Below, piece by piece: positions 391-20,175 of a stretch of 64,000 bases of DNA (the stretch's first letter is position 1; every line of letters starts with the position of its first letter). The translations under genes were made by a program, and so were the position numbers. The DNA comes from a virus. The stretch lies in the IMG/VR virus record IMGVR_UViG_3300025117_001212. The stretch is one strand, 5' to 3'. Below the pieces are notes generated by a model. It worked only from the letters and a program-made list of their open reading frames with translations, was not told the DNA's origin and did not search any database.

Positions 391-657
391 CTATTTCCTC
401 CTAAATATTGAGAAATCCTTAGACGTTCTATAGTTTCCCATGTGTTCGTTGCATTGAGTGCAGAAAAATCTACCTTTATCGTTTTTAGGTGAACCAGTTA
501 GAATCATTCTCAGTTCAGATTCACAATATATGCAGATTATTTTACCCTCCTTTGATAGTGTTATTGATTTGCCATTTGTTATGATTACGTTATCAATGAA
601 TTCCGTCTTGTGAAGTATATAAAATTTCTTACCCTTCTGGATTACTTTTGGTTTCAT
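391..657 (-). CDS. zinc-ribbon protein
   Basis: CIYC ... CTQC pairs; SD GGAGGTGAT. Confidence 0.7.
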   Translation of the reverse strand: MKPKVIQKGKKFYILHKTEFIDNVIITNGKSITLSKEGKIICIYCESELRMILTGSPKNDKGRFFCTQCNEHMGNYRTSKDFSIFRRK

Positions 658-889
658 TTATCACCTCCAGTTCTTCAGGAAAAAATTGATTATTCTCACC
701 TTCTTCTGTTTCTATATGAATGGGTATGTGTCTTACATATTTTGTATATTTTATTGTTCCAAAGTCAAGTTTAGTAATAATTCCAATTCTTCCTATCCAA
801 TCTTCATATACAAGTTTATCGTCTATCAAACATGTTACTCTAACCTTAGTTCCTATTGGGAATTTCTTTCTTATGGTGTAAGCGTTCAT
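629..889 (-). CDS. MNxY-family small SH3/KOW-like protein
   Basis: MNAYTIRKKFPIGTKVRV ... FFPEELEVI. Confidence 0.85.
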   Translation of the reverse strand: MNAYTIRKKFPIGTKVRVTCLIDDKLVYEDWIGRIGIITKLDFGTIKYTKYVRHIPIHIETEEGENNQFFPEELEVINETKSNPEG

Positions 890-1092
890 TTTACAACCTC
901 TACTTCTGAATCATAAAAGTAAGTAATATCGTTTTGAACAAAAATTCTAACAATGAAAGTTCCCCCATCAGTTGTAAAATAATCAATATCTGAAATTTCA
1001 AAAATTTTATTATGATAACCATCAAGTCTTTCAGTAGTTACTTTTATTTTAGCGCCTTTTCTATATTTCTTTTTTGCGAGGTAAGCGTTCAT
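886..1092 (-). CDS. MNxY-family small SH3/KOW-like protein
   Basis: MNAYLAKKKYRKGAKIKV ... FYDSEVEVVK. Confidence 0.85.
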   Translation of the reverse strand: MNAYLAKKKYRKGAKIKVTTERLDGYHNKIFEISDIDYFTTDGGTFIVRIFVQNDITYFYDSEVEVVK

Positions 1093-1252
1093 TTTCTAAT
1101 TCCTTAAATCGCTCCAGCCACTCACTGTGTTCCTCTTCCGATAGATTTTTGCAGAATTTACCGAACGGTTTAATCATAGATCTCTTTCCACTTATATGAG
1201 ATCTATGAGATTTTATACCATGATTTTTACAGTTCTTGGATCTTTTTGGCAT
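1061..1252 (-). CDS. hypothetical basic protein
   Basis: ORF in minus-strand run; no recognised motif. Confidence 0.55.
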   Translation of the reverse strand: MPKRSKNCKNHGIKSHRSHISGKRSMIKPFGKFCKNLSEEEHSEWLERFKELENERLPRKKEI

Positions 1253-1255
1253 TAG

Positions 1256-1678
1256 TTAGTCCTTTAAAGGTTTGACAATGAATGCTTTACATATAGCAAT
1301 TTTGAATTCCTTAAGACCACTGATAATCCTATTTTCAGTGAACTCGCCAATCCCGTCTAGATATTGAATTTCAAAGATAAAACTATTATCACGTGGAAAG
1401 TCAATTTTCCACTCACGTAGACATTTCTCAGCTTCTTCATGGGTCATAAACATGCAAAATCCAAATCTTCCTGTTTTTATGGGTTCATACCTATCCATTT
1501 GATATCTATAATCCCATTGTGCCAGAAGATGACTGTTACTATTTGTTAATTTAACAAAATCATATTTATCATTACACATCCCTATCAAATCACCAGTTTC
1601 TTTATCTTTATTAAAAATTTTGTAAGCAGTTCCGTTAACTGGAATTTCATGGAAACCTTTATGCAGTTCATTACACAT
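1256..1678 (-). CDS. hypothetical protein
   Basis: SD GGAGG and own promoter upstream. Confidence 0.75.
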   Translation of the reverse strand: MCNELHKGFHEIPVNGTAYKIFNKDKETGDLIGMCNDKYDFVKLTNSNSHLLAQWDYRYQMDRYEPIKTGRFGFCMFMTHEEAEKCLREWKIDFPRDNSFIFEIQYLDGIGEFTENRIISGLKEFKIAICKAFIVKPLKD

Positions 1679-1703
1679 CTCTTTTGCCTCCTCTTTTTTA
1701 TTT

Positions 1704-1732
1704 ATTATACCATACTAACATTTCAAAAACAA
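1704..1732 (-). promoter_or_regulatory. sigma70-type promoter
   Basis: TTGTTT-N17-TATAAT with extended -10 TG. Confidence 0.65.
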
Positions 1733-1780
1733 GGGTAAATTTACACACTTCAACAATATTATTTAATTTTTCTTTTAGGT

Positions 1781-2008
1781 CTACTCCTCAATATTGATCT
1801 TCTTTTCATTTATCACCTCCAAAATCTCTTCTAAGAAGACTATTCCATTTTTTCCAAGTCTATCACGAACAGTAACTACATATTTATTCCAAAATTTATG
1901 ATATCTTATTCCTTCTCTAACTTCTTTTATCTTTTGTTCTTCATCATGACCCTTAAATCTTATAAAGATTCCTGGTTTCAATTCTTTCATTGCTGTATAT
2001 AAATTCAT
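1781..2008 (-). CDS. MNxY-family small SH3/KOW-like protein
   Basis: MNLYTAMKELKPGIFIRF ... LEEILEVI. Confidence 0.85.
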   Translation of the reverse strand: MNLYTAMKELKPGIFIRFKGHDEEQKIKEVREGIRYHKFWNKYVVTVRDRLGKNGIVFLEEILEVINEKKINIEE

Positions 2009-2035
2009 TTTTTAATCTTCTTTAAAACTTCTACA

Positions 2036-2278
2036 TTATCTGGATGAAACCACCACACCCATCCCCCAAGTTTCTTTATCATCGGGAATTATTAAGAAAT
2101 TACTATATTTTATGCCTTCAATAGGACCATCTTCACCTGTAAAGAATGCCCATCTTTCTATTGATTTCACTGTAAATATATTTCCATGTCGCCTTATAAT
2201 TCTTTCATCTTCAATGTTATTAATCACTCTTATTTTGCTTCCTATTGGGAATTTCTTCCTTATTGTATACTCATTCAT
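2036..2278 (-). CDS. MNxY-family small SH3/KOW-like protein
   Basis: MNEYTIRKKFPIGSKIRV; SD GGAGGTGA. Confidence 0.85.
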   Translation of the reverse strand: MNEYTIRKKFPIGSKIRVINNIEDERIIRRHGNIFTVKSIERWAFFTGEDGPIEGIKYSNFLIIPDDKETWGMGVVVSSR

Positions 2279-2391
2279 CTTTTGTCACCTCCTTTTGAGT
2301 TTCTATGATTTCAAATTCATCCCTATCAATCGCAACATAGCATTTATTGTGATTCTGGTTTGGCTTTCTTTCCTATTGTATATAGATTCAT
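2271..2391 (-). pseudogene. internally deleted MNxY-family remnant
   Basis: MNLYTIGKKAKPESQ* then, in another frame, the family-type tail IDRDEFEII. Confidence 0.6.
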
Positions 2392-2603
2392 AGGACCTCA
2401 ACTTCATAATCATAGAAAAAGTTATTTGATGGAAAATTACGGTTTTCAACAAAGATATAGACTGCTTCTCTTCTCAAATATATTGAATGACCAACGTCAA
2501 TTTCCCTAATTATAAAAGGTTCACTGAAAAAACTCGATTCGTGGCTCTTTACTCTAATTCTACTTCCTTTTCTATAGATTTTATTAGCTGTGTATAGATT
2601 CAT
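2388..2603 (-). CDS. MNxY-family small SH3/KOW-like protein
   Basis: MNLYTANKIYRKGSRIRV ... FYDYEVEVL. Confidence 0.85.
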   Translation of the reverse strand: MNLYTANKIYRKGSRIRVKSHESSFFSEPFIIREIDVGHSIYLRREAVYIFVENRNFPSNNFFYDYEVEVL

Positions 2604-2808
2604 TTTCGTTTTCCTTAAGAGTTCTTAATTCACTTGGGGTCCACCAGATTTTTTCGTATCCTTCTAATATGATTAGAAATCCAGGAACGAATTTAACAAG
2701 ATTTCTTCCAGATTTAAGAATCGTATATGGTTCTACCCATAGATCGTAACCGATAACTTCAACTTTAGTTCCTGGTCTGTATATTTTCTTTAATGTATAG
2801 TCATTTAA
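2584..2808 (-). CDS. MNxY-family member with TTA at the start position (not in ORF track)
   Basis: GGAGGTGATAACAG-TTA AAT GAC TAT ACA; (L)NDYTLKKIYRPGTKVEV ... WWTPSELRTL. Confidence 0.65.
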   Translation of the reverse strand, partial: LNDYTLKKIYRPGTKVEVIGYDLWVEPYTILKSGRNLVKFVPGFLIILEGYEKIWWTPSELRTLKENENESIHS

Positions 2809-2832
2809 CTGTTATCACCTCCTTATAGTCTT

Positions 2833-3045
2833 CTAAATTAGAATAATTTCATCTGGAAACCACGATACATTATCCCAGTTACTATCATAATCAAAGCCTT
2901 TTAGAAAAATTTTGATATTTCTATCTATTTCAACTCTTTTGATTGTAAATATCTTATCATCATAATATGGGTCTTTATAAATTTTTTTGTTGATAATAAC
3001 TTTAGTTCCTACCTTGTACTTCTTTCTAATCAGGTATTGGTTCAT
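2833..3045 (-). CDS. MNxY-family small SH3/KOW-like protein
   Basis: MNQYLIRKKYKVGTKV ... WFPDEIILI. Confidence 0.85.
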   Translation of the reverse strand: MNQYLIRKKYKVGTKVIINKKIYKDPYYDDKIFTIKRVEIDRNIKIFLKGFDYDSNWDNVSWFPDEIILI

Positions 3046-3088
3046 TAGAAGAAGACCTCAAACATTAAAGAACAAGAATATAAAGTTA

Positions 3089-3280
3089 TTATATTTTTCT
3101 TTTAATATCTATAGCTGTTAACCACCATTCCTCTTCTGTGTAGAGATAGTTATCGTTACCATTGCTGAATTCTTTAACAGTCTGAATCTTTGGTGGACTT
3201 TTGTGATAGAAAATGGTAAATTCATCACTGGCCTCTACTTTATCTCCTGGTTTGAGTCTTTTGAAACAGTAGATGTTCAT
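3089..3280 (-). CDS. MNxY-family small SH3/KOW-like protein
   Basis: MNIYCFKRLKPGDKVEASDEF; recent duplicate of 3570-3767. Confidence 0.85.
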   Translation of the reverse strand: MNIYCFKRLKPGDKVEASDEFTIFYHKSPPKIQTVKEFSNGNDNYLYTEEEWWLTAIDIKRKI

Positions 3281-3531
3281 TCTATAATCTCTATTGCTTC
3301 ATCTGTATTTTTATCTAAAAATACAAAACATGAAGAAACTTCATTTTTTATAGTGTCTTTCATGATGAAGTCTATTGTTTTAGATTCATAATCAATTTTA
3401 TAGATTTCAACTACTTTGCTACATATTGGAGCACAATCACATTTACTTATTCTAGTAGATTCACCTCTGCATTTAGTGATTCTAATCTTAGTTCCTATTT
3501 TATAGGTTTTTCTAAGTGTATAGAGATTCAT
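3277..3531 (-). CDS. MNxY-family protein, Cys-insert subfamily
   Basis: MNLYTLRKTYKIGTKIRITKC ... CDCAPIC ... EAIEIIE. Confidence 0.85.
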   Translation of the reverse strand: MNLYTLRKTYKIGTKIRITKCRGESTRISKCDCAPICSKVVEIYKIDYESKTIDFIMKDTIKNEVSSCFVFLDKNTDEAIEIIE

Positions 3532-3569
3532 AAGAATGATCTCAAATATTAAAGAACAAGAATATAAAG

Positions 3570-3767
3570 TTATAGTTTTTTATCAATTTCACAATGGCTC
3601 AACCACCAACCTTCAATTGTACGGGCATAGATAGAATTATATCTCCGTTCTCTAATCTTTTTAATAGTCTGAATTTTTGGTGGATTGTTATTGTAGTTAG
3701 ATATAAATTCATCACTGGCCTCTACTTTATCTCCTGGTTTGAGTCTTTTGAAACAGTAGAGATTCAT
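3570..3767 (-). CDS. MNxY-family small SH3/KOW-like protein
   Basis: MNLYCFKRLKPGDKVEASDEF ... WWLSHCEI. Confidence 0.85.
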   Translation of the reverse strand: MNLYCFKRLKPGDKVEASDEFISNYNNNPPKIQTIKKIRERRYNSIYARTIEGWWLSHCEIDKKL

Positions 3768-4388: not shown

Positions 4389-4586
4389 TTATTTCTTTGT
4401 AGGGTAAGGAATTTTTCTGAGTATTTCATCAGGGTGAATACACCATCCTTGACGTGTTAGGATACCACTACGCCAGAACTTTTTTACTATCTGTTCTCTG
4501 TGATGGATATTCCATTCTCTCATAGTTTCATCAGTGAGTTCTATGATATCTCCTGGCTTAAGTCTTCTGAAGCAATAGAAATTCAT
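4389..4586 (-). CDS. MNxY-family small SH3/KOW-like protein
   Basis: MNFYCFRRLKPGDIIEL ... IHPDEILRKI. Confidence 0.85.
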   Translation of the reverse strand: MNFYCFRRLKPGDIIELTDETMREWNIHHREQIVKKFWRSGILTRQGWCIHPDEILRKIPYPTKK

Positions 4587-4798
4587 TTGATTCTCTTATA
4601 GTGTTTAAGATTTGAATAAGGAACGCCAATTAAATAATTACTATTATCACTTCTTAATAGAATTAAATGTTTACGACTGGTATTATATCCATCAACAATC
4701 CAAACATTATAGTGTTTCTTATATCCCTTATGATTGTTGAAATTTCTAATTAACTTAGTTCCTATTGGATATTTTTTCTTCAGTGTATACAAGTTCAC
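4583..4798 (-). CDS. MNxY-family small SH3/KOW-like protein
   Basis: MNLYTLKKKYPIGTKL. Confidence 0.85.
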   Translation of the reverse strand: MNLYTLKKKYPIGTKLIRNFNNHKGYKKHYNVWIVDGYNTSRKHLILLRSDNSNYLIGVPYSNLKHYKRIK

Positions 4799-5058: not shown

Positions 5059-5274
5059 TTATGTGATTTGCTTTTTGATATATTTGAGATGAACATGTAT
5101 TTCATTTTCAGTGTATACACCCCTCCAAAATTCTTCAATCATCACAGATTTCACAATCATTGTTCTTTTAGATTTTGAAACAGGATCTTTAACTTTATGA
5201 ACCTCTGAGAAATATGATTTATTAACAAGAATTCTATTTCCTTTCTTAAGTTTTTTTAATTCTGAAAATTTCAT
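5059..5274 (-). CDS. SH3/KOW-like protein related to the MNxY family (variant N-terminus)
   Basis: MKFSELKKLKKGNRILV ... VHLKYIKKQI. Confidence 0.75.
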   Translation of the reverse strand: MKFSELKKLKKGNRILVNKSYFSEVHKVKDPVSKSKRTMIVKSVMIEEFWRGVYTENEIHVHLKYIKKQIT

Positions 5275-5477
5275 GATTCTTCTATTTTACATTCAACATT
5301 AGATATATGAGTGAGTTTTGGATTTCTAGTTTCGCTATCACTTGTTACTATCCATAATTTACTATTACCCCAACGCTTCTTCACAACTTGGATTGTAGAA
5401 CAATCTCTATGATCCATTCCTTCGCGAAGTCTAATTCTATCTCCTGGTTTCAATTTATTGAAAGTATATAGATTCAT
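5271..5477 (-). CDS. MNxY-family small SH3/KOW-like protein
   Basis: MNLYTFNKLKPGDRIRL. Confidence 0.85.
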   Translation of the reverse strand: MNLYTFNKLKPGDRIRLREGMDHRDCSTIQVVKKRWGNSKLWIVTSDSETRNPKLTHISNVECKIEES

Positions 5478-5483
5478 GTCAAT

Positions 5484-5577
5484 TTAACTACTACCATTAG
5501 CCCTTTGAAAGCAATATATATTCATCTCAATAACCCATTTAACCCTCGCTATTAGCCCTTTGAAAACATATATTCAT
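5484..5577 (-). pseudogene. two tandem N-terminus-only MNxY remnants (mini-ORFs)
   Basis: MNICFQRANSEG* (5539-5577) and MNIYCFQRANGSS* (5484-5525); direct repeat ATTAGCCCTTTGAAA. Confidence 0.6.
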
Positions 5578-5777
5578 TTTTCTATCTTACAGATTATTGC
5601 TACTCTTGGGACATTCAAAGGTTCTTTATTTCTTGAATTAACAATAAATGTTTTTATCCAATCACTGTCTGTGGTTACTGCTTCTACTACTTCACATTCC
5701 ATTGGAGTTTTTCTCATTGGAAAATCAATAAGAATTCTATCACCTACTTTCAATTTTTTGAATGTATATAGATTCAT
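5574..5777 (-). CDS. MNxY-family small SH3/KOW-like protein
   Basis: MNLYTFKKLKVGDRILI. Confidence 0.85.
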   Translation of the reverse strand: MNLYTFKKLKVGDRILIDFPMRKTPMECEVVEAVTTDSDWIKTFIVNSRNKEPLNVPRVAIICKIEK

Positions 5778-6009
5778 TCTACAAACTCAAATTCATCTTC
5801 ATATCTAGCTTGGCAAACCCTCGAAGTGCAACTGTTAATAAAATTAATTTCATATTCATTTCTATTACTATTAAATTTTAGTTCTACAATTTCATGTGTT
5901 TCGCTAAGACAACGGTTATGACAAGGAGAATCTGCCTTACATGCTTACATGCGATCATCTTTAGTTTCTTACAGGTTACAGCTCCTTTTTTGAAAGTATA
6001 TAAATTCAT
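5774..6009 (-). pseudogene. frameshifted MNxY-family member, Cys-insert subfamily
   Basis: MNLYTFKK... switches frame near TGTAAGCATGTAAGGCA into ADSPCHNRCLSETHEIVE...EDEFEFVE*; span 236 nt, not a multiple of 3. Confidence 0.65.
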
Positions 6010-6203
6010 TTTTCTATCTTTCTAACGATTTGATAAGGTAAAACATATAGCCCATAATCAATATCCGCACAATCGTTCCCAGATGAATCTTTTCGTAATT
6101 TTATTATGGTAATTCTTTCAGGAAGAAATAATCCTTTAAATAAATTGTCGGCTATTTCTATTTCATCACCTACTTTCAATTTACGAAAACAGTATAAATT
6201 CAT
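6006..6203 (-). CDS. MNxY-family small SH3/KOW-like protein
   Basis: MNLYCFRKLKVGDEIEI. Confidence 0.85.
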   Translation of the reverse strand: MNLYCFRKLKVGDEIEIADNLFKGLFLPERITIIKLRKDSSGNDCADIDYGLYVLPYQIVRKIEK

Positions 6204-6256: not shown

Positions 6257-6445
6257 TTACCGGAAATATTTTGAATTACCATCTAAGAGATCTAGAATTT
6301 CTTTTGAAAAAACCTGTTCATGTTCCTCTTCATCTAATAAATCAAAAACAGTTTCTACTATCACCATAATTTCTTCTGGTGAAAGTTTTTCTTTTAGAGT
6401 TTTTGCAAGTTCATTACGACCTTTTTCCCAACTGTATTTATTCAT
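6257..6445 (-). CDS. MNxY-start protein with a helical, non-SH3 body
   Basis: MNKYSWEKGRNELAKTLKE. Confidence 0.7.
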   Translation of the reverse strand: MNKYSWEKGRNELAKTLKEKLSPEEIMVIVETVFDLLDEEEHEQVFSKEILDLLDGNSKYFR

Positions 6446-6550: not shown

Positions 6551-7162
6551 TTACGCTGAGGCTTCTGCTGCGACCTGAGCGAGAGCCTTGCGGACCGGTG
6601 TCCTCTTCAGTTCGGTGGCCTTCCTCTTAGCAACGATCTTTTCCACTGTCTTCTTGGAGACCTTTCCCTTGGCTTCCTTGACAACCTCACCGACCCTCTT
6701 GGCGGCGGCGGCTTTCCTCATGTTCCAGCCAGCCTCAGCCTCACGCCCCTTGTAGATCTCAGCGTAGTAGTCCTTCGTGGACTTCGGGTCCTTCACGCGG
6801 TCCTCGAGCATCGCCAGGGTCACCTTGTTGAGTGGAACCGAGGAGAGGTAATCGTAGTGATTGCCCGGATGCTTGAACAGGCGCTCACGATTCTTTCCGG
6901 TGCCGGTGAACATTGGACGGCTGATGATCATGTCGCCGCCACGCCTGGCCGAGAACAGGACGTCCCCGTTTCGCTTCACCTGAAGGGCTCCCCACGAGTT
7001 CTCCACGAGGCTCAGATCCGAATGCTTCTTCAGGATGGCCGAGAACATATTCCGAATGGTTTTATTCTCGTGCTGGTTGTCGCCTCTCTTGATCTTGGCG
7101 GCACATCCGACTTTCACGACTTCCTTCTTGACATCTTTTTTCGTAGACTTTTTCTTAGACAT
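6551..7162 (-). CDS. basic Lys/Ala-rich putative nucleic-acid-binding protein
   Basis: SD GGAGG before MSKKKSTKK (7162); histone-H1-like K/A-rich tail; GC-richer codons; own terminator. Confidence 0.75.
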   Translation of the reverse strand: MSKKKSTKKDVKKEVVKVGCAAKIKRGDNQHENKTIRNMFSAILKKHSDLSLVENSWGALQVKRNGDVLFSARRGGDMIISRPMFTGTGKNRERLFKHPGNHYDYLSSVPLNKVTLAMLEDRVKDPKSTKDYYAEIYKGREAEAGWNMRKAAAAKRVGEVVKEAKGKVSKKTVEKIVAKRKATELKRTPVRKALAQVAAEASA

Positions 7163-9673: not shown

Positions 9674-9714
9674 AGTTTGTATTGGGGAGTTTGTTGTCCT
9701 CCCCAATCTCCTTT

Positions 9715-10873: not shown

Positions 10874-10920
10874 ATTTATCACCTCCAATCTTGAGGGGGT
10901 GAAAGCCCCTCGGTTATATG

Positions 10921-11928: not shown

Positions 11929-11946
11929 AATCATTTCCTCCCTTTC

Positions 11947-13807: not shown

Positions 13808-13990
13808 TCACCTCCTAGAAGTCATATATCTTAGTTTACCAATTACCATATGAAATGAACTCTTCCTATCTAAGATTGTGCTGTGAATTGCAAGTGTCCA
13901 GCGTTTCCCATTCTTATAAATCACATTCGGGTATTTTATGATTTTAGTTAACTTGGTTACATTGTCATACTCGAAGAACTTAATGTTCAA
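13808..13990 (-). CDS. hypothetical protein
   Basis: TTG start overlapping upstream stop. Confidence 0.55.
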   Translation of the reverse strand: MNIKFFEYDNVTKLTKIIKYPNVIYKNGKRWTLAIHSTILDRKSSFHMVIGKLRYMTSRR

Positions 13991-14274
13991 GCTCTTGCGC
14001 CATTGAATTTGCTAACCAGTTCGTTTACCTTCAATTCCATGGCTTTCTTTTCAGCCATCGGCCTGAATCCTCTCTTGTCGATCCGAATGATGGTTCCGGT
14101 CTTGACGATCTTCACCGTCACCATAGTTCCGACGATTCTCATCACCTCTACCTTAACAGCACCCCTTCCAGTACGAAGGGCTTCCTCATCCACTCTGTGG
14201 CTAAGATGTGCCATGCGAATCTGACCAACGCGAAGGTCACTACCATCCGAACGACCAAACGTCAAATTTCCCAT
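13987..14274 (-). CDS. basic SH3-like hypothetical protein
   Basis: LRVGQI ... VKVEVMRIVGTMVTVKIV; SD AAGGAG; GC-richer codons. Confidence 0.7.
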   Translation of the reverse strand: MGNLTFGRSDGSDLRVGQIRMAHLSHRVDEEALRTGRGAVKVEVMRIVGTMVTVKIVKTGTIIRIDKRGFRPMAEKKAMELKVNELVSKFNGARA

Positions 14275-14286
14275 TGTATTTCTCCT

Positions 14287-14421
14287 TTATGAAAGATTTA
14301 TACCAGAATTAACCATCCACATTAAGATTGTTTGGTTATCAATTAATTGAGTTACAGGATAATAGAATACTCCGTTCCGCATGGGTGGACCTCGAATAGT
14401 TACTTGCTGATTATTCCACAT
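14287..14421 (-). CDS. small hypothetical protein, 44 aa (not in ORF track)
   Basis: SD AAGGAGGTGAT; MWNNQQVTIRGPPMRNG. Confidence 0.55.
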   Translation of the reverse strand: MWNNQQVTIRGPPMRNGVFYYPVTQLIDNQTILMWMVNSGINLS

Positions 14422-14437
14422 ATATCACCTCCTTCAA

Positions 14438-14653
14438 CTAGATCTTGTTTGACTTCCAAGCATCAAAGATATTGGAAGCGATTCCTTTGTCATAAGTCCT
14501 GAACAATGACCATCTATGATTGCAGAGGTTTTCCAACTTTGTAGGATCAATGTCTGAGTAGAATACGGCAAATCCTACCGTGATCTGAGCAAAGTAGACA
14601 CGCCCAGAATCCCCTCTCAGTTCTGTTGAATCAATAACTTTCACAACCTTCAT
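14438..14653 (-). CDS. hypothetical protein
   Basis: SD GAGGTGA. Confidence 0.7.
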   Translation of the reverse strand: MKVVKVIDSTELRGDSGRVYFAQITVGFAVFYSDIDPTKLENLCNHRWSLFRTYDKGIASNIFDAWKSNKI

Positions 14654-14661
14654 TTGTCACC

Positions 14662-14877
14662 TCACCTTTTGATAATAAATTCTTTTCTAAGTGAATTATA
14701 TTTATACCTCACCACCAGGCTCTTAGTTTCAAATGAAATGAACTTTTTTACAAAATCATTTGAAAGAACCTTTGCCACTTCTGGCGCTTGATAGTCAGGT
14801 GATTCTTTTTGTTCAATTAAATCTGTTAATTGAACAAAATCTCCTCTTTTTAATCGGCTTAATGTATACAAGTTCAT
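14662..14877 (-). CDS. MNxY-family small SH3/KOW-like protein
   Basis: MNLYTLSRLKRGDFVQL. Confidence 0.85.
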   Translation of the reverse strand: MNLYTLSRLKRGDFVQLTDLIEQKESPDYQAPEVAKVLSNDFVKKFISFETKSLVVRYKYNSLRKEFIIKR

Positions 14878-14886
14878 TTCACCCTC

Positions 14887-15030
14887 CTAATAATCAAGGT
14901 TGGCATCTTTCAAAAAAGCCTTGACAGTGAAGTACACAGCCACAGGGAAAATCTTAATCATTCTGTAAATAATCCTGCAAAGAATGAAAACACACCCGCA
15001 AACACAAAAGAACACTGCCATACTCTTCAT
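14887..15030 (-). CDS. small membrane protein, 47 aa
   Basis: SD AGGAG before MKSMAVFFCVCGCVFILC; hydrophobic. Confidence 0.55.
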   Translation of the reverse strand: MKSMAVFFCVCGCVFILCRIIYRMIKIFPVAVYFTVKAFLKDANLDY

Positions 15031-15103
15031 ATCATATCTCCTATCTTTCAAAAGGGTTATGATGATCTGGTTAATTGAGCATCTATATTGTTTATCATGT
15101 TTG

Positions 15104-15277
15104 TCACCTCCCTTCGGCTCTTTGCCAGTCCTCATAAGAACGGAACCCGAAATGCACAACTTCCCCTTCAATCCTCACAACCACTGGCACTCCAAAGGCC
15201 GTCCTCTGTGGCCCTTCACCTGAGCATCCAAACCAGCCTAACGTATCACGCCATACCCAAAATAATCTCTTTTTCAT
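15104..15277 (-). CDS. small hypothetical protein, 57 aa (not in ORF track)
   Basis: SD AGGAG; MKKRLFWVWRDTLGWFGC. Confidence 0.6.
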   Translation of the reverse strand: MKKRLFWVWRDTLGWFGCSGEGPQRTAFGVPVVVRIEGEVVHFGFRSYEDWQRAEGR

Positions 15278-15350
15278 AATATTCTCCTATTCTTTGTTAA
15301 AGGTTATGATTATCTAGTTAATAGTGCATCTACAAGTTAGTAATAGTTAA

Positions 15351-15542
15351 TTAAATGATTCCAAGAATCTTAGCAATTTTGATTACTTGAACATTAGTTG
15401 CTCTAGTTCCAATAGCATGTTCACAGGTGACCCGAATACCATAAAGTGTATGACTGTTAATTGACTTAGCAACTTTAGCAAGCCGTTCATCAACAAGCTG
15501 ACTTGCTTTCTCAAAAATAGCCAATGTTTCTTTCTTAGTCAT
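15351..15542 (-). CDS. hypothetical protein
   Basis: SD GGAGGTGA. Confidence 0.65.
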   Translation of the reverse strand: MTKKETLAIFEKASQLVDERLAKVAKSINSHTLYGIRVTCEHAIGTRATNVQVIKIAKILGII

Positions 15543-15799
15543 TACTCTGTCACCTCCTTCCTGCGCCTTCTCCTGATCACATCACCAATGCGTGTGATGT
15601 CGCACTTGAGCGACCTTTCCTTGCGCTCCAACTCCAACACCAACTCCAGGCTCTCAGTGAGCCCTTTGTCAATATTGTTGATATTGGGTTTCTTCTGTCC
15701 AACGGACCTGGACACAGCACCCTTGTTGTTAACATCACCGGCTTTCATTCTGCCGGTGAATCCGAAATAGACACTTCTCAAACCTTCGTTTCCTATCAT
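15542..15799 (-). CDS. hypothetical basic protein
   Basis: coupled ORF, GC-richer codons. Confidence 0.6.
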   Translation of the reverse strand: MIGNEGLRSVYFGFTGRMKAGDVNNKGAVSRSVGQKKPNINNIDKGLTESLELVLELERKERSLKCDITRIGDVIRRRRRKEVTE

Positions 15800-15957
15800 G
15801 TTAATTTTCTCCCATAGATTAAAAGATTAGACAAGTAGGTTAGAATTGAGGCTAGACGTTTGGCTGTGAGTTTACTGAAACCAAGGTCAATAATTCTACA
15901 ATAGATGTGAAGTGGATTGACACGGTGCATTATACTTCCAATCACCGGTCGTCCCAT
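15796..15957 (-). CDS. small hypothetical protein, 53 aa (not in ORF track)
   Basis: SD GGAGGTGA; stop overlaps next ATG. Confidence 0.55.
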   Translation of the reverse strand: MGRPVIGSIMHRVNPLHIYCRIIDLGFSKLTAKRLASILTYLSNLLIYGRKLT

Positions 15958-15974
15958 ACATGTCACCTCCCTCC

Positions 15975-16130
15975 CTATGCGGTCAGGCGCAACCCCTCCA
16001 GTATAGCCGGAGTAACCCTATCCCAAGGGCCTCTGACCTGAATGTGACCCAAATAGAGAGCCACTACAAAGTAGCCCTCAAGCGTTTGGTATATATTGAA
16101 TCCCCTATCACACTCAAACATTGGTCTCAT
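15975..16130 (-). CDS. small hypothetical protein, 51 aa (not in ORF track)
   Basis: SD AGGA; MRPMFECDRGFNIYQT. Confidence 0.55.
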   Translation of the reverse strand: MRPMFECDRGFNIYQTLEGYFVVALYLGHIQVRGPWDRVTPAILEGLRLTA

Positions 16131-16213
16131 AATTATTCCTTTCTTTTGTTAAATTGTTATGTTGATAAGTTAACACTAAGGCATCTACATTGTTGAGTTG
16201 TTAATCATTTTTA

Positions 16214-16390
16214 TCACCTCCCTAGTACGAACATTATGATTGCCCACATATGAGCAACCGCACCAAAGGTTGAAAAGAACAACACAATTCCTCCTATTAC
16301 CCTGCTTCCTCTGATGATGTCATGCAAACCCCACACCATAGCAAATAGAAACATCACTAACGACACGAACGGTAATACATCCCACCACAT
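16214..16390 (-). CDS. small two-TM membrane protein, 58 aa (not in ORF track)
   Basis: SD GGAGGTGAT; MWWDVLPFVSLVMFLFAMVWG...VIGGIVLFFSTFGAVAH. Confidence 0.65.
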   Translation of the reverse strand: MWWDVLPFVSLVMFLFAMVWGLHDIIRGSRVIGGIVLFFSTFGAVAHMWAIIMFVLGR

Positions 16391-16544
16391 GTTATCACCT
16401 CCATTGTTAGATTGTCACACATTAGGTTATCACCACAGTTAGATTGTTATGTTGTTATTTGACTTCACTAATCACCCCCTACCCCATGTTATTTTGGGCG
16501 TAAGGCACTATTACTTGTTATGACCACCCGATGAATTAGTCGAT

Positions 16545-16632
16545 AAAAATGATTTCTTAGTAACTTACGAACTACCATACTACCTATTGACCCCTCGTTG
16601 ATTCGTTCGAAAAATGATTTCTTAGTAACTTA
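16545..16632. repeat. 23-bp direct repeat x2 (plus a degenerate third) in non-coding DNA
   Basis: AAAAATGATTTCTTAGTAACTTA at 16545 and 16610. Confidence 0.8.
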
Positions 16633-16859
16633 GAAGTATTAACCTCTTGATGATTCAATCGAAGAAATGATTTAATCGAAATTTTTGAAACTTAAGAAAC
16701 CTTATGAGATAATATAGGCTTTACATTAACTGTATAACTACAAGCAGGGTATACCCGCTATAACCAACCTTATACTTTTGTTTCTTAAATTTTTGAATTC
16801 ATTTTTAATCTAGAAATGAAGATAAGAAAGGATCATGTTGTAGAAAAAATTCGAAAAAT

Positions 16860-17195
16860 TTATCTGATTTTAGAACTATAACTACTTGAAACAGAATCAT
16901 AAACATTATATCCTATACTCACGTGGTAGGATTTTATGAAGGGTTCTAGATCATCGGGGGTTTCAAAATAGTAACATAGAAGATTTATGAGGTAGTCTGC
17001 ATTAAATGGCTCTGAAGAGTCATCGTGCGTGGGTAGACTCCTTGTGATTGCAGTCACGAATGGGATAGTTATTATGTAGAAGTCTACAATCATCACAGAA
17101 TGATTGATAGAGAATTTTATATGTCTTCTTGGATGCAGAATTGTTCCGATTGGAAGTATTTCACGAAGTCTCTTCATTAGAGTGTAGATATTCAT
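16860..17195 (-). CDS. MNxY-family protein
   Basis: MNIYTLMKRLREILPIGTIL. Confidence 0.8.
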   Translation of the reverse strand: MNIYTLMKRLREILPIGTILHPRRHIKFSINHSVMIVDFYIITIPFVTAITRSLPTHDDSSEPFNADYLINLLCYYFETPDDLEPFIKSYHVSIGYNVYDSVSSSYSSKIR

Positions 17196-17209
17196 ATTCT
17201 ACCTCAGCA

Positions 17210-17425
17210 TCAACATGTTAAACTGAATGCTTTTCTAAATAGATCTATAGATAACCTATGTTCTGAGCCATCACTTAGATTACTCAAAATTTTAAAATGT
17301 ATTTTCACTACATTTTCATTTTCGAAACCCTCTCTTATTGAATGCCCGATTACTTTGATATAACCATTAACACTTCCCATGGGAAATTCTTTTCTAGCTT
17401 CTTTAAGAATGGTGTAGCTATTCAT
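17210..17425 (-). CDS. MNxY-family small protein
   Basis: MNSYTILKEARKEFPMGS. Confidence 0.85.
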   Translation of the reverse strand: MNSYTILKEARKEFPMGSVNGYIKVIGHSIREGFENENVVKIHFKILSNLSDGSEHRLSIDLFRKAFSLTC

Positions 17426-17518
17426 TTTTCTACCAACTTATTTTCAATTTTGATTGATATGGAGTCATTTTTATTGATTTTACATGCATGATTCTCATAG
17501 AGAACATCTAGGTACATT

Positions 17519-17701
17519 TCAGAAGCTGCATACTCTAATCCCATGTAGTTTTACTAGTGCAAGGCAGGTGTAGTCATTAGAGTGATCAGGAGCAATATGA
17601 GAAAGAATAGTTAGGGTATCTCCAATATTATTGTACCGAACAAGTTTCGTTCCTATTGGATAGGTTTTTCTAAAGTTTTTGAATTTAGTGTAGAGGTTCA
17701 T
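17519..17701 (-). CDS. MNxY-family small protein (possibly 3' frameshifted)
   Basis: MNLYTKFKNFRKTYPIGTKL; another frame stays open to the next ATG. Confidence 0.75.
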   Translation of the reverse strand: MNLYTKFKNFRKTYPIGTKLVRYNNIGDTLTILSHIAPDHSNDYTCLALVKLHGIRVCSF

Positions 17702-17910
17702 AATGGCTCTAACTCTTCAGGATAGAATAGATAAGGTGTATTGATTTCACTACAATTAGTTTCTGGCTCTGCCTGTATGACAATTCTACGAAATACCGTG
17801 CTATATCTTACTAAAGTGATGTAGCATATCTTATTTGTTCTAAGACTCTTAAACCTTGAACCAACAGGATACTTTGATCTAACTTCTTTAAGTAGAGTAT
17901 AGTTATTCAT
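17698..17910 (-). CDS. MNxY-family small SH3/KOW-like protein
   Basis: MNNYTLLKEVRSKYPVGSRF ... FYPEELEPL. Confidence 0.85.
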   Translation of the reverse strand: MNNYTLLKEVRSKYPVGSRFKSLRTNKICYITLVRYSTVFRRIVIQAEPETNCSEINTPYLFYPEELEPL

Positions 17911-18124
17911 TAGTAAACCAACTTCTAAATATCTCAATAGGTTGAGAATATTTTGCTCCAGATTTATCTTCAAAGTGTATTATTGCAATTTTAGTTCCAG
18001 CAATACTATGCCCAATACTATGACCTATTATTTCTATAGACGCTGAAGAAGTTATTTTAGAAATATATCTACTACCTATGGGGAATTCTTTTCTAGCTTC
18101 TTTTAGTTTTGTATAATTATTCAT
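17903..18124 (-). CDS. MNxY-family small SH3/KOW-like protein
   Basis: MNNYTKLKEARKEFPIGSRY. Confidence 0.85.
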   Translation of the reverse strand: MNNYTKLKEARKEFPIGSRYISKITSSASIEIIGHSIGHSIAGTKIAIIHFEDKSGAKYSQPIEIFRSWFTNE

Positions 18125-18323
18125 AAGCCGTCCTTGTTTCTTCATCTAACATCTGTACTAAATATTTTCCTTTTTCAAGACCATCTAGAATAAGAAATGT
18201 TATCCATATCCCGTAATTACTTATTTCCCATTTAATTACTTTTAATATTCGTCCATCTTCTGTAATAATTTTATCTATTGGATATTTCTTCCTCAAAAAT
18301 TTCATTAAGGTATAATTATTCAT
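18117..18323 (-). CDS. MNxY-family small SH3/KOW-like protein
   Basis: MNNYTLMKFLRKKYPIDKI. Confidence 0.85.
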   Translation of the reverse strand: MNNYTLMKFLRKKYPIDKIITEDGRILKVIKWEISNYGIWITFLILDGLEKGKYLVQMLDEETRTAYE

Positions 18324-18525
18324 TTTTATCTTCTTCAATTAATCTTTCAATATCTACCGTTATACTTCCTTCCAGATTATTGCCTTCAACAAATATCGTT
18401 AGATATTGATCTTTTAATATGAATTTTGATATCTTTCCCATATGTTTTTCATCAAAAGTCTGAGTAATAGTTGACCCTATAGGAAAATGCTTGTTAGCAT
18501 ATTTTAACTTGGTATAATAATTCAT
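18316..18525 (-). CDS. MNxY-family small SH3/KOW-like protein
   Basis: MNYYTKLKYANKHFPIGSTI. Confidence 0.85.
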   Translation of the reverse strand: MNYYTKLKYANKHFPIGSTITQTFDEKHMGKISKFILKDQYLTIFVEGNNLEGSITVDIERLIEEDKNE

Positions 18526-18797
18526 TTGATTATATCATAATATTTTTCTAAATCATTAATTGATATGAAATCGTGTTCATAAGTTGAAGCTTTTATGTAA
18601 CCGTTAACGGTTTTAGTCATACTAATTGATGATACTTCAACTTCAAGGATAGGTAATACATAATCAATTATGGAACAATCTTCTGGAAATAGTGATATTT
18701 TTCTATAATCAGAAAAATCAAGATCTTCTTTTAATCTTAGCTTAGCTCCAATAGGGTATTTTTGAATTAGTAATTTTTTTGCAGTGTATCTATTCAT
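18522..18797 (-). CDS. MNxY-family small SH3/KOW-like protein
   Basis: MNRYTAKKLLIQKYPIGAKL. Confidence 0.85.
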   Translation of the reverse strand: MNRYTAKKLLIQKYPIGAKLRLKEDLDFSDYRKISLFPEDCSIIDYVLPILEVEVSSISMTKTVNGYIKASTYEHDFISINDLEKYYDIIK

Positions 18798-18997
18798 TTT
18801 TCTATTTCATCTGCTGAAAATACTAATTGAATATTGTTATATTTATTCATTTCAATAGTTCTAACGTATGGGCCTATTTTATCTACTGCTCTAATATCAA
18901 CTGTAAATATTTTTCCTTCAAACCCTCGTGTTTGTGCCATCTCTTTAACCCTAAATCTATCACCATGTTTTAATTTATTAAATGTATATATATTCAT
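18794..18997 (-). CDS. MNxY-family small SH3/KOW-like protein
   Basis: MNIYTFNKLKHGDRFRV ... FSADEIEK. Confidence 0.85.
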   Translation of the reverse strand: MNIYTFNKLKHGDRFRVKEMAQTRGFEGKIFTVDIRAVDKIGPYVRTIEMNKYNNIQLVFSADEIEK

Positions 18998-19209
18998 ATT
19001 CTTAACCATTTATTTTTTTGTTTCAAATCTAACCAATGGATTACTTCATTATTACTTTCTTTAATAACCTTACCTTTAGCAAACCATTTATCTGCTAATA
19101 TTTCATAACCTATAATGCAGATATGCTCCCATCGATTGTATTTATTTCTAAAAAATTTACCTTTGGGAAATATTCTTCTAAGTTCTTTAAATTCTGTATA
19201 TATGTTCAT
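18994..19209 (-). CDS. MNxY-family small SH3/KOW-like protein
   Basis: MNIYTEFKELRRIFPKGKFF. Confidence 0.85.
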   Translation of the reverse strand: MNIYTEFKELRRIFPKGKFFRNKYNRWEHICIIGYEILADKWFAKGKVIKESNNEVIHWLDLKQKNKWLRI

Positions 19210-19445
19210 ATTATTTCAACATGATCAGGATTAATAATAACACCAAACTCTAAATTAACTGGATTATTGTTACTATCTATTGCAGATACCCTTGCATTAA
19301 TGAATAATTCATTTCGTGTTGTTCTGAAATAACCAATAACATGTCCGTGATATTCTATTTCAGATTCATGGTCATTATATGGTTCTTCAAAATATCTAAT
19401 TTTAGTCCCTATTGGAAATTTCTTTTTTATCGTATATTCATTCAT
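19206..19445 (-). CDS. MNxY-family small SH3/KOW-like protein
   Basis: MNEYTIKKKFPIGTKIRY ... NPDHVEII. Confidence 0.85.
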   Translation of the reverse strand: MNEYTIKKKFPIGTKIRYFEEPYNDHESEIEYHGHVIGYFRTTRNELFINARVSAIDSNNNPVNLEFGVIINPDHVEII

Positions 19446-19636
19446 GGCGACTTTTTAAACGTAAAGGTCCTAGTTCCACTAAATGTAGGTCTATCTAATT
19501 TTAGAACAATTTCATCATGTGTTATTTCTATTCCCTCTAAATAGAAGGATTCTTTAAAACCAGCAAATTCAATAGTTATTTTTCTTCTTCCCGTCATTAA
19601 TTCTCTTATTGCCTTATTTATTGTATATTCATTCAT
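19442..19636 (-). CDS. MNxY-start small protein
   Basis: MNEYTINKAIRELMTG. Confidence 0.8.
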   Translation of the reverse strand: MNEYTINKAIRELMTGRRKITIEFAGFKESFYLEGIEITHDEIVLKLDRPTFSGTRTFTFKKSP

Positions 19637-19827
19637 ATTACTATCTCAATTTCATCTTTATACCAGGGGAATGGATTATCCTTAAGCCATATCGTTAGAT
19701 ATGAATTATTAAATCTATCTACTTTTGATATTATATGAATTCTATCTAATTTTGGCATTATTTTATCAGATTTTATTCTTACTTTTTGTCCAGGTTTAAG
19801 ATATTTATTAAACACATAATCATTCAT
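19633..19827 (-). CDS. MNxY-family small SH3/KOW-like protein
   Basis: MNDYVFNKYLKPGQKVRI ... WYKDEIEIV. Confidence 0.85.
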   Translation of the reverse strand: MNDYVFNKYLKPGQKVRIKSDKIMPKLDRIHIISKVDRFNNSYLTIWLKDNPFPWYKDEIEIVI

Positions 19828-20002
19828 TGATTATCACCAAATCTTCTGGGCTAAATAAATCATCATCATATTCAACCAATTCTATTAGCCATACTTTCTT
19901 CCAAAACTCTACAATTCCTTTAACAGTTCCAACGCAATCATCTAAAGGACAACTAACTTTAGTTCCTGGTTTAAATGTTTTCCTAAGTGTGTACAGATTC
20001 AT
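19820..20002 (-). CDS. MNxY-family small SH3/KOW-like protein
   Basis: MNLYTLRKTFKPGTKV ... FSPEDLVII. Confidence 0.85.
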   Translation of the reverse strand: MNLYTLRKTFKPGTKVSCPLDDCVGTVKGIVEFWKKVWLIELVEYDDDLFSPEDLVIINE

Positions 20003-20175
20003 TTTATTATCTCTATTTCATCAATAGGAAGTAATACGTATATTCCCTCAACCACAACTCCCAATATTTTATTTTCGTGTTTATATATTCCCATTATACG
20101 CCTAATGGTTTTATCTTTTATGAGTATAACTGATTTTCCTAACTGAATATATTTATCTAATGTGTACTTATTCAT
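19999..20175 (-). CDS. MNxY-family protein, 58 aa (not in ORF track)
   Basis: MNKYTLDKYIQLGKSV ... LPIDEIEIIK. Confidence 0.8.
   Translation of the reverse strand: MNKYTLDKYIQLGKSVILIKDKTIRRIMGIYKHENKILGVVVEGIYVLLPIDEIEIIK

Follow-up and report, generated by a model that had tools for sequence, protein, structure and literature searches.

The MNxY array and its genome context

We analysed a window of 64,000 nucleotides from the 114,591-bp contig of an uncultured, siphovirus-like phage from groundwater, whose genome spans 114 kb or more. Both strands of positions 629-20175 were scanned with a regular expression, which gave 38 ATG-started MNxY ORFs of at least 40 aa, all on the minus strand. 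A GTG-started ORF (4583-4798) and a TTG-started ORF (10652-10873) complete the set. The 40 ORFs starting (M/V/L)-N-x-Y comprise 39 intact genes (58-115 aa) and one truncated copy (41 aa, 5884-6009), and a both-strand scan found no such start on ORFs longer than 40 aa in the rest of the window. Over the whole contig we counted 59 MNxY-type ORFs of at least 50 aa, all on one strand between genome positions 49000 and 114167, with a combined length of about 12.8 kb (11% of the contig). The expansion of about 41 members proposed in the initial annotation is real and was understated; the phage carries about 52 recognisable family copies and about seven tag-only relatives. The longest-ORF track mis-starts several members, as had been suspected (8519-8785, 9464-9706, 17698-17973, 17903-18145, 18117-18338 and 18794-19009).

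All 59 ORFs lie on the non-structural strand, which they share with helicases, primase, GyrA and thymidylate synthase, and they make up a large share of this arm, in agreement with the early-arm dominance claimed for them. A MoxR-like ATPase gene and a VWA (DUF2201) gene are embedded in the array, both here and in a second, syntenic phage lineage (L024) whose conserved DNA is 67% identical. Many of the genes are closely spaced: the start codon overlaps the preceding stop codon in 35 of the 59 ORFs, and a recognisable SD-like sequence is found upstream of 24. Since none of 43 structural-arm genes and only 2 of 721 internal Met residues (0.28%) head an MNxY sequence, these starts are far above chance expectation.

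The first array gene, on the minus strand like all those listed here, encodes 58 aa (19999-20175; full HMM 2.6e-10). It is followed by class A members at 19820-20002 (60 aa, KPGTK; HMM 2.4e-15), 19633-19827 (64 aa; HMM 9.7e-19) and 19206-19445 (79 aa, FPIGTK; HMM 9.9e-14). Class C members, with a longer N-terminal helix, fall in the BLASTP component at 18994-19209 (71 aa), 18316-18525 (69 aa), 18117-18323 (68 aa, class C-like) and 17519-17701 (60 aa). BLASTP likewise links to the family the class C members 17903-18124 (73 aa; aligned by hhalign over residues 1-23, with 4 residues inserted in the helix), 17210-17425 (71 aa, 40% identical to 17903-18124) and 16860-17195 (111 aa, with a long C-terminal extension; HMM 9.4e-05). 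The class C copy at 17698-17910 (70 aa; HMM 4.3e-09, barrel 2.7e-07) has the typical C-terminus FYPEELE, and that at 18522-18797 (91 aa; HMM 1.4e-08) matches the barrel HMM (1.1e-04), which ties the class to the remaining family. Class B is represented at 18794-18997 (67 aa, LKxGD; HMM 9.2e-14) and 14662-14877 (71 aa; HMM 2.9e-09). Further members lie at 13562-13804 (80 aa; HMM 1.6e-08) and at 13204-13551, where a 115-aa HMM-matching protein carries a CxxC zinc-ribbon-like tail C-terminal to the barrel; alone among the copies, it is as well conserved as a normal gene, with 58% identity to its orthologue in L024.

The TTG-started member at 10652-10873 (73 aa, HMM match) reads MNQY, with an upstream TTG at 10888 as a possible alternative start. 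Its neighbour at 10434-10655 (73 aa, HMM match) is 37% identical to its positional L024 orthologue, whereas the flanking anchor genes reach 63-67%. The HMM-matching members at 9464-9673 (69 aa) and 9235-9471 (78 aa) form a two-gene block duplicated at genome 70552-71184. A 98-aa non-family protein at 8946-9242 starts MDKY, and its L024 orthologue starts MNLY. Cys-rich loops mark a subset of copies, among them the HMM-matching members at 8519-8737 (72 aa, 5 Cys) and 3277-3531 (84 aa). Two proteins resemble the family without carrying the tag, at 8301-8522 (73 aa, MKEEIKKLMLEYPIGTIV...; weak HMM match, E 0.09) and 5059-5274 (71 aa, MKFSELKKLKKGN...; full HMM E 0.015), and an MNxY-headed 74-aa protein at 8064-8288 matches weakly (full HMM 3.8e-04, barrel 0.71).

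Class B continues at 6006-6203 (65 aa; HMM 7.6e-11), 5574-5777 (67 aa; 9e-14), 5271-5477 (68 aa; 1.8e-15) and 4389-4586 (65 aa; 2.2e-13), the last next to the GTG-started member (71 aa; 8.6e-14). Its copies at 3570-3767 (65 aa) and 3089-3280 (63 aa, HMM match) are the youngest duplicate pair, with 57% aa and 73% nt identity. Class A members are found at 2833-3045 (70 aa; HMM 1.1e-17), 2388-2603 (71 aa; 4.9e-15), 2036-2278 (80 aa; 2.4e-16), 1781-2008 (75 aa; 5.4e-12) and 886-1092 (68 aa; 4.1e-17), followed by the 86-aa copy that was modelled (629-889). Three-frame translation revealed three decayed or remnant copies. At 5778-6009 the 41-aa ORF (MNLYTFKK) is continued in another frame by a barrel body and a DEFEFVE end. 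At 5484-5525, also seen in the ORF scan, 13 codons of a class B copy remain (MNIYCFQR...), and at 2279-2391 an internal deletion separates an MNLYTIGKK head from a DEFEIIE end in another frame.

Homology beyond the tag and the predicted fold

BLASTP placed 36 of the 40 window copies in one component, with full-length pairs 30-57% identical. We also cut the first 8 residues from window copies and trained a cross-validated HMM on the barrel part alone. Of 14 held-out copies it recovered 10, and in L024 it found 12 copies; neither the structural arm nor the wrong strand gave a match. Judged by sequence, the MNxY ORFs are a true protein family, homologous beyond the tag, and the concern that no HMM would be shared past four residues is removed.

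In the alignment (A1), M1, N2 and Y4 never vary, and 41 of the 42 sequences have G13. The consensus near the start, K/R-K-(F/Y/L)-x-x-G-x-K/R-V, and the C-terminal (F/W)-x-x-(D/E)-E-(I/L)-E-(I/V)-(I/V) hold as initially described. Core columns are 92-100% hydrophobic and most other columns exceed 3 bits of entropy; conservation is limited to M1, N2, Y4, K8, G13 and the core positions, the remainder being hypervariable. The alignment entropy bears out the picture of a constant core with variable surface and loops.

The AF2 model of 629-889 (pLDDT 83.6) consists of a helix at residues 3-9 and five strands. Its Foldseek matches were PetP (2n5u, TM 0.65), the eS4 KOW domain, YorP (2heq, TM 0.57) and PsaE, and AlphaFold DB clusters of DUF2158, KOW, DUF1918, NifZ, CarS and DUF4314, in alignments beginning at residue 9-12. 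The predicted family fold is an N-terminal helix followed by a five-stranded SH3-like barrel; the barrel had been anticipated by likeness to YorP and CarS, now seen among the closest solved structures and the cluster matches, respectively. YorP, from the B. subtilis prophage SPbeta, is like the family a stand-alone phage barrel of about 70-85 aa, but it is a single gene without the MNxY head and has no match at the sequence level. The best fold matches, PetP of cytochrome b6f and PsaE of photosystem I, are cellular photosynthetic subunits that are not expanded and lack the N-terminal helix. PsaE was the only solved protein picked up when the sequence profile was run against PDB sequences, with a match short of significance (E 0.02) that spans the stretch between xGxKVRI and the terminal F..(D/E)E(V/I).

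No member matched Pfam above threshold, and one weakly matched phrog_16588 (E 5e-4). Run against 1.84 billion proteins, the family profile detected phage and bacterial proteins built of tandem SH3-like repeats (E 1e-9 to 1e-18, with 3-8 repeats contributing to the match), which share a K-x-G-D-x-V-R ... E-L-E-K pattern. These proteins show sub-threshold matches to Pfam SH3_12, SH3_13, SH3_15 'Mind bomb', DUF1918 and DUF4926. They keep their barrels in one polypeptide and align to profile positions 8-68 only, whereas the MNxY family has one gene per barrel, each with its own tagged helix. One such repeat gene adjoins a phage portal gene. A free-standing SH3 domain gene is also known from the lysis module of Drexlerviridae (Eremina et al. 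2026, PMC13164509), but as a single lysis-cassette gene for a proposed cell-wall binder, not as an early-arm expansion.

The fold neighbours include KOW domains of eS4, L24 and Spt5, and one tandem-repeat relative is labelled NusG by its source. The copies might be small barrels that bind nucleic acids, like Sso7d/Cren7, KOW or Sm-like proteins, and that coat or remodel DNA or RNA of the phage or the host with help from a basic N-terminal helix. The median pI is 8.9, 34 of 57 copies of up to 120 aa are basic, and the first 14 residues have a mean net charge of +2.3; these values are compatible with nucleic-acid binding no less than with protein binding. Yet the 57 also include 12 acidic and 11 nearly neutral copies, the alignment shows hypervariable exposed faces that lack a conserved basic patch, and generic coating needs no fifty-plus diverged copies; we consider such a role unlikely.

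A peptide-level tag at the N-terminus

Every tagged copy is headed by the octapeptide MNxY(T)xx(K/R). Asn2 is encoded by AAT in 43 cases and AAC in 16, Tyr4 by TAT in 42 and TAC in 17, and codon 3 by 26 different codons. Because synonymous codons vary at both fixed positions, the tag is a peptide-level signal under selection; a codon-level comparison had been proposed to separate peptide from RNA motif, and an RNA motif is rejected as the cause. An artefact of ATGA overlaps is rejected as well, given the rarity of MNxY at internal Met residues and its absence from structural-arm genes; the tag is also present at the 24 starts free of overlap with a gene upstream.

The tag also heads about seven proteins without a barrel-profile match, where 0.27 would be expected. 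One, of 195 aa, has an orthologue in the other lineage that is tagged as well. Another is the acidic 62-aa protein at 6257-6445, in which an MNKYSWEK head stands on a body modelled as all-alpha (AF2, four helices, pLDDT 75.8) and hhalign against the family profile covers residues 1-8 only. The claim that the tag is retained on non-SH3 bodies is supported for this gene; for the 64-aa protein at 19442-19636, headed by MNxYTxxK and aligned with the family profile over residues 1-10 only (hhalign; barrel HMM E 0.7), such a body is no more than possible.

These proteins raise the question of whether the octapeptide is a portable address that brings varied small proteins to one machine. Phage T4 offers a precedent in its internal proteins IPI, IPII, IPIII and Alt: these diverse small proteins have in common only a short peptide conserved at the N-terminus, the capsid targeting sequence of 10 residues, with residues 4 and 7 decisive, a format interpreted as the product of an arms race with host defences (PMC3012670, PMC9026906). 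By analogy, the MNxY proteins could be packaged in the prohead and delivered along with the injected DNA, as a counter-defence kit ready for use. Alternatively, the MoxR-type ATPase and VWA pair within the array could recognise the tag, or a protease could take it as a signal for degradation. N2, Y4 and K8 are conserved above every barrel residue except G13, and the shared barrel begins only at residue 9-12 in fold comparisons, as if the head were an add-on. The MNxY set differs from T4 in that its genes lie in the non-structural arm and most bodies have one fold. Moreover, the array lies with the replication genes in the arm whose transcription runs against that of the head genes. The tag is followed by no conserved motif for protease cleavage, and in the model the head forms a confident helix that runs on into the fold (pLDDT 86 for the first 10 residues). 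The tag-only proteins may also be members with diverged or replaced bodies. An address function seems to us rather improbable.

Divergence between lineages and a proposed repertoire of binders

Between L024 and the present genome, median best-match identity is 21.8% for family genes and 42.0% for anchor genes (Mann-Whitney p = 1.9e-5), suggesting that the family diverges about twice as fast as its neighbours; gene turnover or relaxed constraint may also account for this. An array of similar density is kept in L024. Within the array, best matches lie nearer than in permutations (distance 12.2 vs 19.3 +/- 1.9), and the copies appear to have arisen by tandem and block duplication with occasional decay. 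There is no sign of ongoing within-population diversification, since all public contigs of the phage are 100% identical.

The decayed copies would also be expected if the array had no diversified function and consisted of tolerated tandem duplicates that drift. The conserved start would then be the ancestral N-terminus, retained for the benefit that Asn and Tyr close to the start bring to early elongation and protein yield. In E. coli reporters, (K/N)-(Y/I) residues at codons 3-5 gave the top yield, partly through the amino acids themselves (PMC6920384), and the many starts coupled to an upstream gene, with few SD-like sequences, agree with such a role. However, N and Y stand side by side in the reporter motif but at positions 2 and 4 here, and Lys, the commonest second residue in the phage's other genes (32 vs 19 for Asn), never occurs there in the family. 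With 39 of 40 window frames intact although the copies have at most 35% identity to one another, clear purifying selection on core residues and the array's persistence in L024, we regard drift as quite unlikely.

The explanation we favour, at roughly even odds, is that one small protein underwent a lineage-specific birth-and-death expansion and that its copies act as a repertoire of small binders. In each copy the M-N-x-Y-(T)-x-x-(K/R) helix precedes the predicted five-stranded barrel. Three elements stay constant, namely a Gly hairpin, the core of hydrophobic residues and the strand (F/W)xx(D/E)E(I/L)E(I/V) at the C-terminus, while exposed positions and loop lengths can differ. Produced from the non-structural (early/replication) arm, these single-domain binders would each offer a different surface to a separate host or defence target. 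The octapeptide may serve as their common functional handle, either as a fold cap that also aids efficient early translation or as a recognition element, and would be retained when the body is replaced. We infer such a binder, decoy or anti-defence role from small size, position, copy number and fast divergence relative to the neighbours; no member matches a known anti-defence or defence family, and the phage was not found in RNA runs. Some 55-60 fast-diverging genes for this small SH3-like barrel protein take up about one tenth of the phage genome.

The phage and its MNxY gene family

The window corresponds to positions 5175-69174, read on the reverse strand, of one contig of 114,591 bp (34% G+C). 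The source is a tailed phage. Its genes for terminase, portal, prohead protease, HK97-type capsid protein and a tape measure protein of 2479 aa all lie on the plus strand of the window; the strand opposite to these structural genes carries a 5'-3' exonuclease, a MoxR-type ATPase with its VWA partner, GyrA, helicases, primase and thymidylate synthase. The same DNA is found, at 100% identity, in more than 20 public contigs (the longest 139,835 bp) that come from several studies of groundwater and soil-labelled metagenomes. The last 328 bases of our contig resemble part of a TnpB gene in related contigs (85-90% identity), and the contig is therefore probably incomplete. TnpB (IS605 OrfB) is present in two copies, at genome positions 97741-98904 (8567-9727 of contig L002) and at the contig end (114264-114591). 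The related contigs L006-L009 are 98.6% identical to the genome up to the first of these copies, then diverge and continue with a block encoding RecA, HU and AAA_23 that includes one further tagged gene (P0043). Because of the two TnpB copies and this divergence, the phage is probably about 140 kb long, the 114.6-kb contig being a partial or variant assembly of it. Over window positions 58000-64000 the G+C content climbs from about 35% to 50%, and a frame of more than 1045 aa there runs past the window end; the stretch is probably of different origin and concerned with tail fibres or host recognition.

The 'phages' collection contained no near DNA match to this genome, and the capsid protein matched only siphoviruses there, at 25-28% identity. 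Scans of IMG/VR and JGI metagenomes with the ATPase, an ATPase alignment, an alignment of a 241-aa anchor protein (anchor genes being the non-family neighbours) and a degenerate DNA pattern of class-A copies returned no relatives, and a word-indexed protein search returned the phage's own proteins alone. For host identification, no relative of TnpB was found in the 185,000 genomes scanned, and the phage was present in none of the RNA runs.

The initial annotation described about 41 ORFs starting with MNxY between positions 629 and 20175. By scanning for ATG-AAY-NNN-TAY in ORFs of at least 40 aa we observed nearly the same number: 38 ATG-started ORFs on the minus strand, one with a GTG and one with a TTG start, 40 in total. 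They comprise 39 intact genes, 58-115 aa long, and a truncated copy of 41 aa; no comparable ORF was found in the remaining 44 kb. Past the window start the family goes on, so that the whole contig contains 59 tagged ORFs of at least 50 aa, all on a single strand, which together take up 11% of the DNA (about 12.8 kb). Simple ORF tiling gives 141 genes on that strand beyond 48.5 kb, and roughly four in ten belong to the MNxY set. This abundance cannot be due to chance, since MNxY follows only 2 of 721 internal methionines and begins none of the 43 structural-arm genes. Multigene families of such size are typical of giant eukaryotic viruses. To our knowledge, no published phage has 40% of its non-structural-arm genes, and 11% of its DNA, made of copies of one 70-residue domain.

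BLASTP placed 36 of the 40 window ORFs in a single component, in which many pairs align over their full length at 30-57% identity. To avoid circularity, we cut the first eight residues from the 42-sequence family alignment and trained a barrel-only profile on window copies alone. It recovered 10 of 14 held-out genome copies and 12 copies in a different phage (E <1e-3), with neither wrong-strand nor structural-arm matches, and the reverse training experiment recovered 11 window copies. Since copies among those held out, in the second phage and, in reverse, in the window are found without the head, the possibility raised initially that members share no HMM beyond four residues does not hold. Three sub-types can be distinguished: class A, with K/F-P-I-G-T-K; class B, with L-K-P-G-D; and class C, clustered at 16860-19209, in which the helix is four residues longer and precedes F-P-I-G-S. 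The cross-validated barrel-only HMM joins class A and class B copies and two of class C, the remaining class C copies being joined by BLASTP and the FPIGS hairpin only. No copy reached Pfam or PHROG thresholds, and neither the members nor the anchor genes among them fell into a consistent family in PHROGs, Pfam or PADLOC. The MNxY array belongs to an unclassified sequence family and is the largest expansion of SH3-like paralogues that we have met.

An SH3-like barrel carrying a conserved N-terminal head

In the family alignment M1, N2 and Y4 are invariant, position 8 is always K or R, and 41 of 42 sequences have G13. Some twelve columns of the core are 92-100% hydrophobic; among the remaining columns the majority exceed 3 bits of entropy, and loop lengths differ, which bears out the constant scaffold and variable surface proposed initially. 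In a subset of copies, the loop that follows the first strand has four to six cysteines, and such Cys-rich loops are possibly metal-binding.

An AF2 model of one family copy, the 86-aa protein encoded at 629-889, built with the 42-sequence alignment, consists of a helix at residues 3-9 followed by five strands (pLDDT 83.6), a predicted five-stranded, partly open barrel of about 60 residues. The structural matches listed from PDB, BFVD and AlphaFold DB clusters were mostly SH3, KOW and Tudor-type barrels together with uncharacterised small phage proteins. Against PDB, Foldseek returned PetP (TM 0.65), the KOW domain of eS4 (TM 0.53-0.56), YorP of SPbeta (TM 0.57), PsaE and the variable subunit of ferredoxin-thioredoxin reductase; the AlphaFold DB clusters matched were DUF2158, KOW, DUF1918, NifZ, CarS (rank 9) and DUF4314, and dozens of uncharacterised small phage proteins matched in the viral library. 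Stand-alone SH3-like proteins are indeed common in phages (PMC13164509). Independently of the model, the family profile aligns to PsaE from the G-x-K-V-R-I hairpin through the F-x-x-D-E-V end (E 0.02). When searched against 1.84 billion representative proteins, the profile matched 322, among which the long ones contain three to eight tandem barrel repeats aligned to profile positions 8-68 only. These tandem-repeat proteins have sub-threshold Pfam matches to SH3_12, SH3_13, SH3_15, DUF1918 and PsaE, and one of them adjoins a phage portal gene. Taken together, the structural matches, the PsaE alignment and the tandem repeats indicate that the barrel belongs to the SH3-like class, as predicted from model and profile, and is kin to a widespread phage repeat.

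The likeness to YorP and CarS suggested in the initial annotation, and that to KOW, was thus recovered at the level of the fold, but not at that of known families. There was no significant Pfam match to the YorP family, which is absent among the 25 of 29 sub-threshold families listed. For the CarS SH3 domain (PF18354, SH3_18; threshold 25 bits) one member reached 12.1 bits (E 0.2), and for DUF4314 (PF14192; threshold 27 bits) 3 of 42 members matched below threshold (best E 0.0017). KOW proteins of the NusG/Spt5/L24 type were reached by profile only as L24 and Spt5 chains at E 0.4-7, the likeness to eS4 being structural.

In the structural alignments the common part starts only at residue 9-12, so the tagged helix is an addition to the barrel. 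We examined the codons of this head, the octapeptide MNxY(T)xx(K/R). Both codons are used at N2 (AAT 43, AAC 16) and at Y4 (TAT 42, TAC 17), C-ending codons being if anything commoner than in gene bodies; 26 different codons occur at position 3, and T5 is written with all four codons. As synonymous sites vary and codon 3 is free, we rejected an RNA motif; the tag is a peptide signal. Upstream of the starts there is a weak purine-rich signal only. Nor is the tag an artefact of ATGA overlaps, the other explanation put forward initially: starts overlap the upstream stop by 4 nt in 26 cases and by 8 nt in 9, but the 24 non-overlapping starts are equally tagged, and an overlap constrains one base only.

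A purely translational or ancestral head, without diversified function in the array, is a less probable alternative. In E. coli, early-elongation yield is higher when asparagine or lysine and tyrosine lie close to the start (PMC6920384), which is the best mundane explanation of the head. However, in that motif N/K and Y are adjacent and Lys is accepted, whereas Lys, the commonest second residue in the phage's other genes, is never found at position 2 of the family.

About seven proteins without a match to the barrel profile also start with MNxY(T/S/N)xx(K/R), against 0.27 expected. They are encoded at 6257-6445 and 19442-19636 in the window and at genome positions 74215 (195 aa), 87865, 88278, 89076 and 111336. 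Profile-profile alignment of three of these tag-only proteins confined the likeness to residues 1-8, 1-10 and 1-15. The claim that the tag is retained on non-SH3 bodies stood for 6257-6445, modelled as four helices (pLDDT 75.8); 19442-19636 shares the head only and could be a diverged barrel. In a second phage lineage, a 185-aa orthologue of the 195-aa protein retains the tag, and the gene at 8946-9242, which starts with MDKY here, has an orthologue starting with MNLY. The octapeptide is under stricter conservation than the fold and is also carried by unrelated proteins.

Divergence, duplication and decay of the array

This second lineage (L024, a contig of 18.3 kb, and L010-L013, from other samples) is about 67% identical in conserved DNA, is syntenic with genome 50-70 kb and contains about 27 tagged genes in 18 kb. 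Anchor genes having a match show a median identity of 42% between lineages (maximum 67%), whereas family genes show a median of 22% to their best match. Identity of at least 40% was reached by 1 of 28 family genes versus 10 of 26 anchors (Mann-Whitney p = 1.9e-5, Fisher p = 0.002), the exception being a 115-aa protein with barrel and zinc-ribbon (13204-13551), 58% identical between lineages. Within the genome, best matches lie nearer than chance (mean rank distance 12.2 vs 19.3 +/- 1.9). Duplication has also involved a block of two genes (9235-9673 and genome 70552-71184). Identity is 57% in the youngest pair, 3089-3280 and 3570-3767, and decayed copies are found at 2279-2391, 5484-5525 and 5778-6009, the last being frameshifted. 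The array has thus evolved by birth and death over long times. The sampled population is clonal, all public contigs being 100% identical to the genome; nothing therefore suggests ongoing hypermutation, and within-population diversification, for instance by a retroelement, is unsupported. A scan of the array for promoters and terminators gave counts not above those of shuffled sequence.

Two further observations concern the public contigs. In a 14.5-kb public contig from one run, position 3216 is joined to 3704 via a 57-nt stretch common to the two youngest paralogues, with loss of 487 bp including the gene at 3277-3531. The join reflects either a true deletion variant produced by recombination or a collapse during assembly; both of its end points are also sites of contig breaks in other runs. 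In four runs, the k-mer depth of public contigs is two to four times lower at 400-3700 and 16300-20300, where the array is densest, than in the central 3.7-16.3 kb, which hints at co-existing strains with different array ends; among the contigs fetched we found no alternative flanks for these stretches.

Several other genes accompany the array. Directly upstream of its start lies a gene of the DUF488-N3a family (20388-20777, Pfam E 4e-9), itself preceded by the 5'-3' exonuclease and a dCTP-deaminase-like gene. Embedded at 10921-13083 are a MoxR/AAA_5-type ATPase (337 aa) and a VWA-like DUF2201 protein (378 aa), found at the same place in the second lineage at 67% and 54% identity; the DUF2201 protein matches phrog_1314, whose HNH endonuclease annotation looks wrong here. 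The genes at 6551-7234 and 9715-10440 (G+C about 45% and 40%, against about 30% around) encode paralogous proteins of about 203 and 241 aa with a Lys-rich tail and a common GALQ...R.GD...P core. In the second lineage conservation is 63% for each, and neither could be assigned to a family; the contig L031 has a 78-bp in-frame deletion in 6551-7234. Between class B and class C copies, the array is interrupted at 13987-16400, where G+C is about 41%, by small non-family genes (47-95 aa), 46-73% identical in the second lineage.

Possible roles of the array

The array is best accounted for as a repertoire of small binding proteins that would serve host takeover or counter-defence, close to the binder or decoy library proposed initially, a reading to which we give about even credence. 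It is based on the minimal interaction fold, the free surface, the dozens of kept copies, the position in the non-structural arm and a change faster than that of neighbours. Four PADLOC models were each matched by a single member (E 2e-4 to 6e-3), with no consistent model, and no anti-CRISPR or other known inhibitor was present among the best 50 PDB Foldseek matches listed. Alternatively, though less probably, the copies may bind nucleic acids; their pI ranges from 4.6 to 10.2 (median 8.9) and the first 14 residues are basic in every copy.

In a different and improbable reading, MNxY(T)xx(K/R) would be a transferable address peptide delivering about sixty small proteins, barrels and unrelated bodies alike, to one machine, which could be the prohead, for co-injection with DNA, or the array's own MoxR/VWA pair. 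The nearest precedent in format is the capsid targeting sequence of T4 (PMC3012670, PMC9026906), as a short conserved N-terminal peptide on diverse bodies is found here as well. Unlike in T4 internal proteins, however, a prohead-protease cleavage motif after the tag is not evident. If true, this reading would mean that the phage holds a pre-loaded or centrally handled effector library. In any case, the strict conservation of the head and its unrelated carriers make a portable phage peptide signal directly testable.

With its fixed core, free surfaces, variable loops and optional Cys-rich loops, the array amounts to a naturally occurring library built on a minimal scaffold. If, as in the repertoire reading, the copies bind proteins of the host or of its defences, many new inhibitors could be drawn from the array, which would also be a model for how phages explore binding space through duplication rather than targeted mutagenesis.
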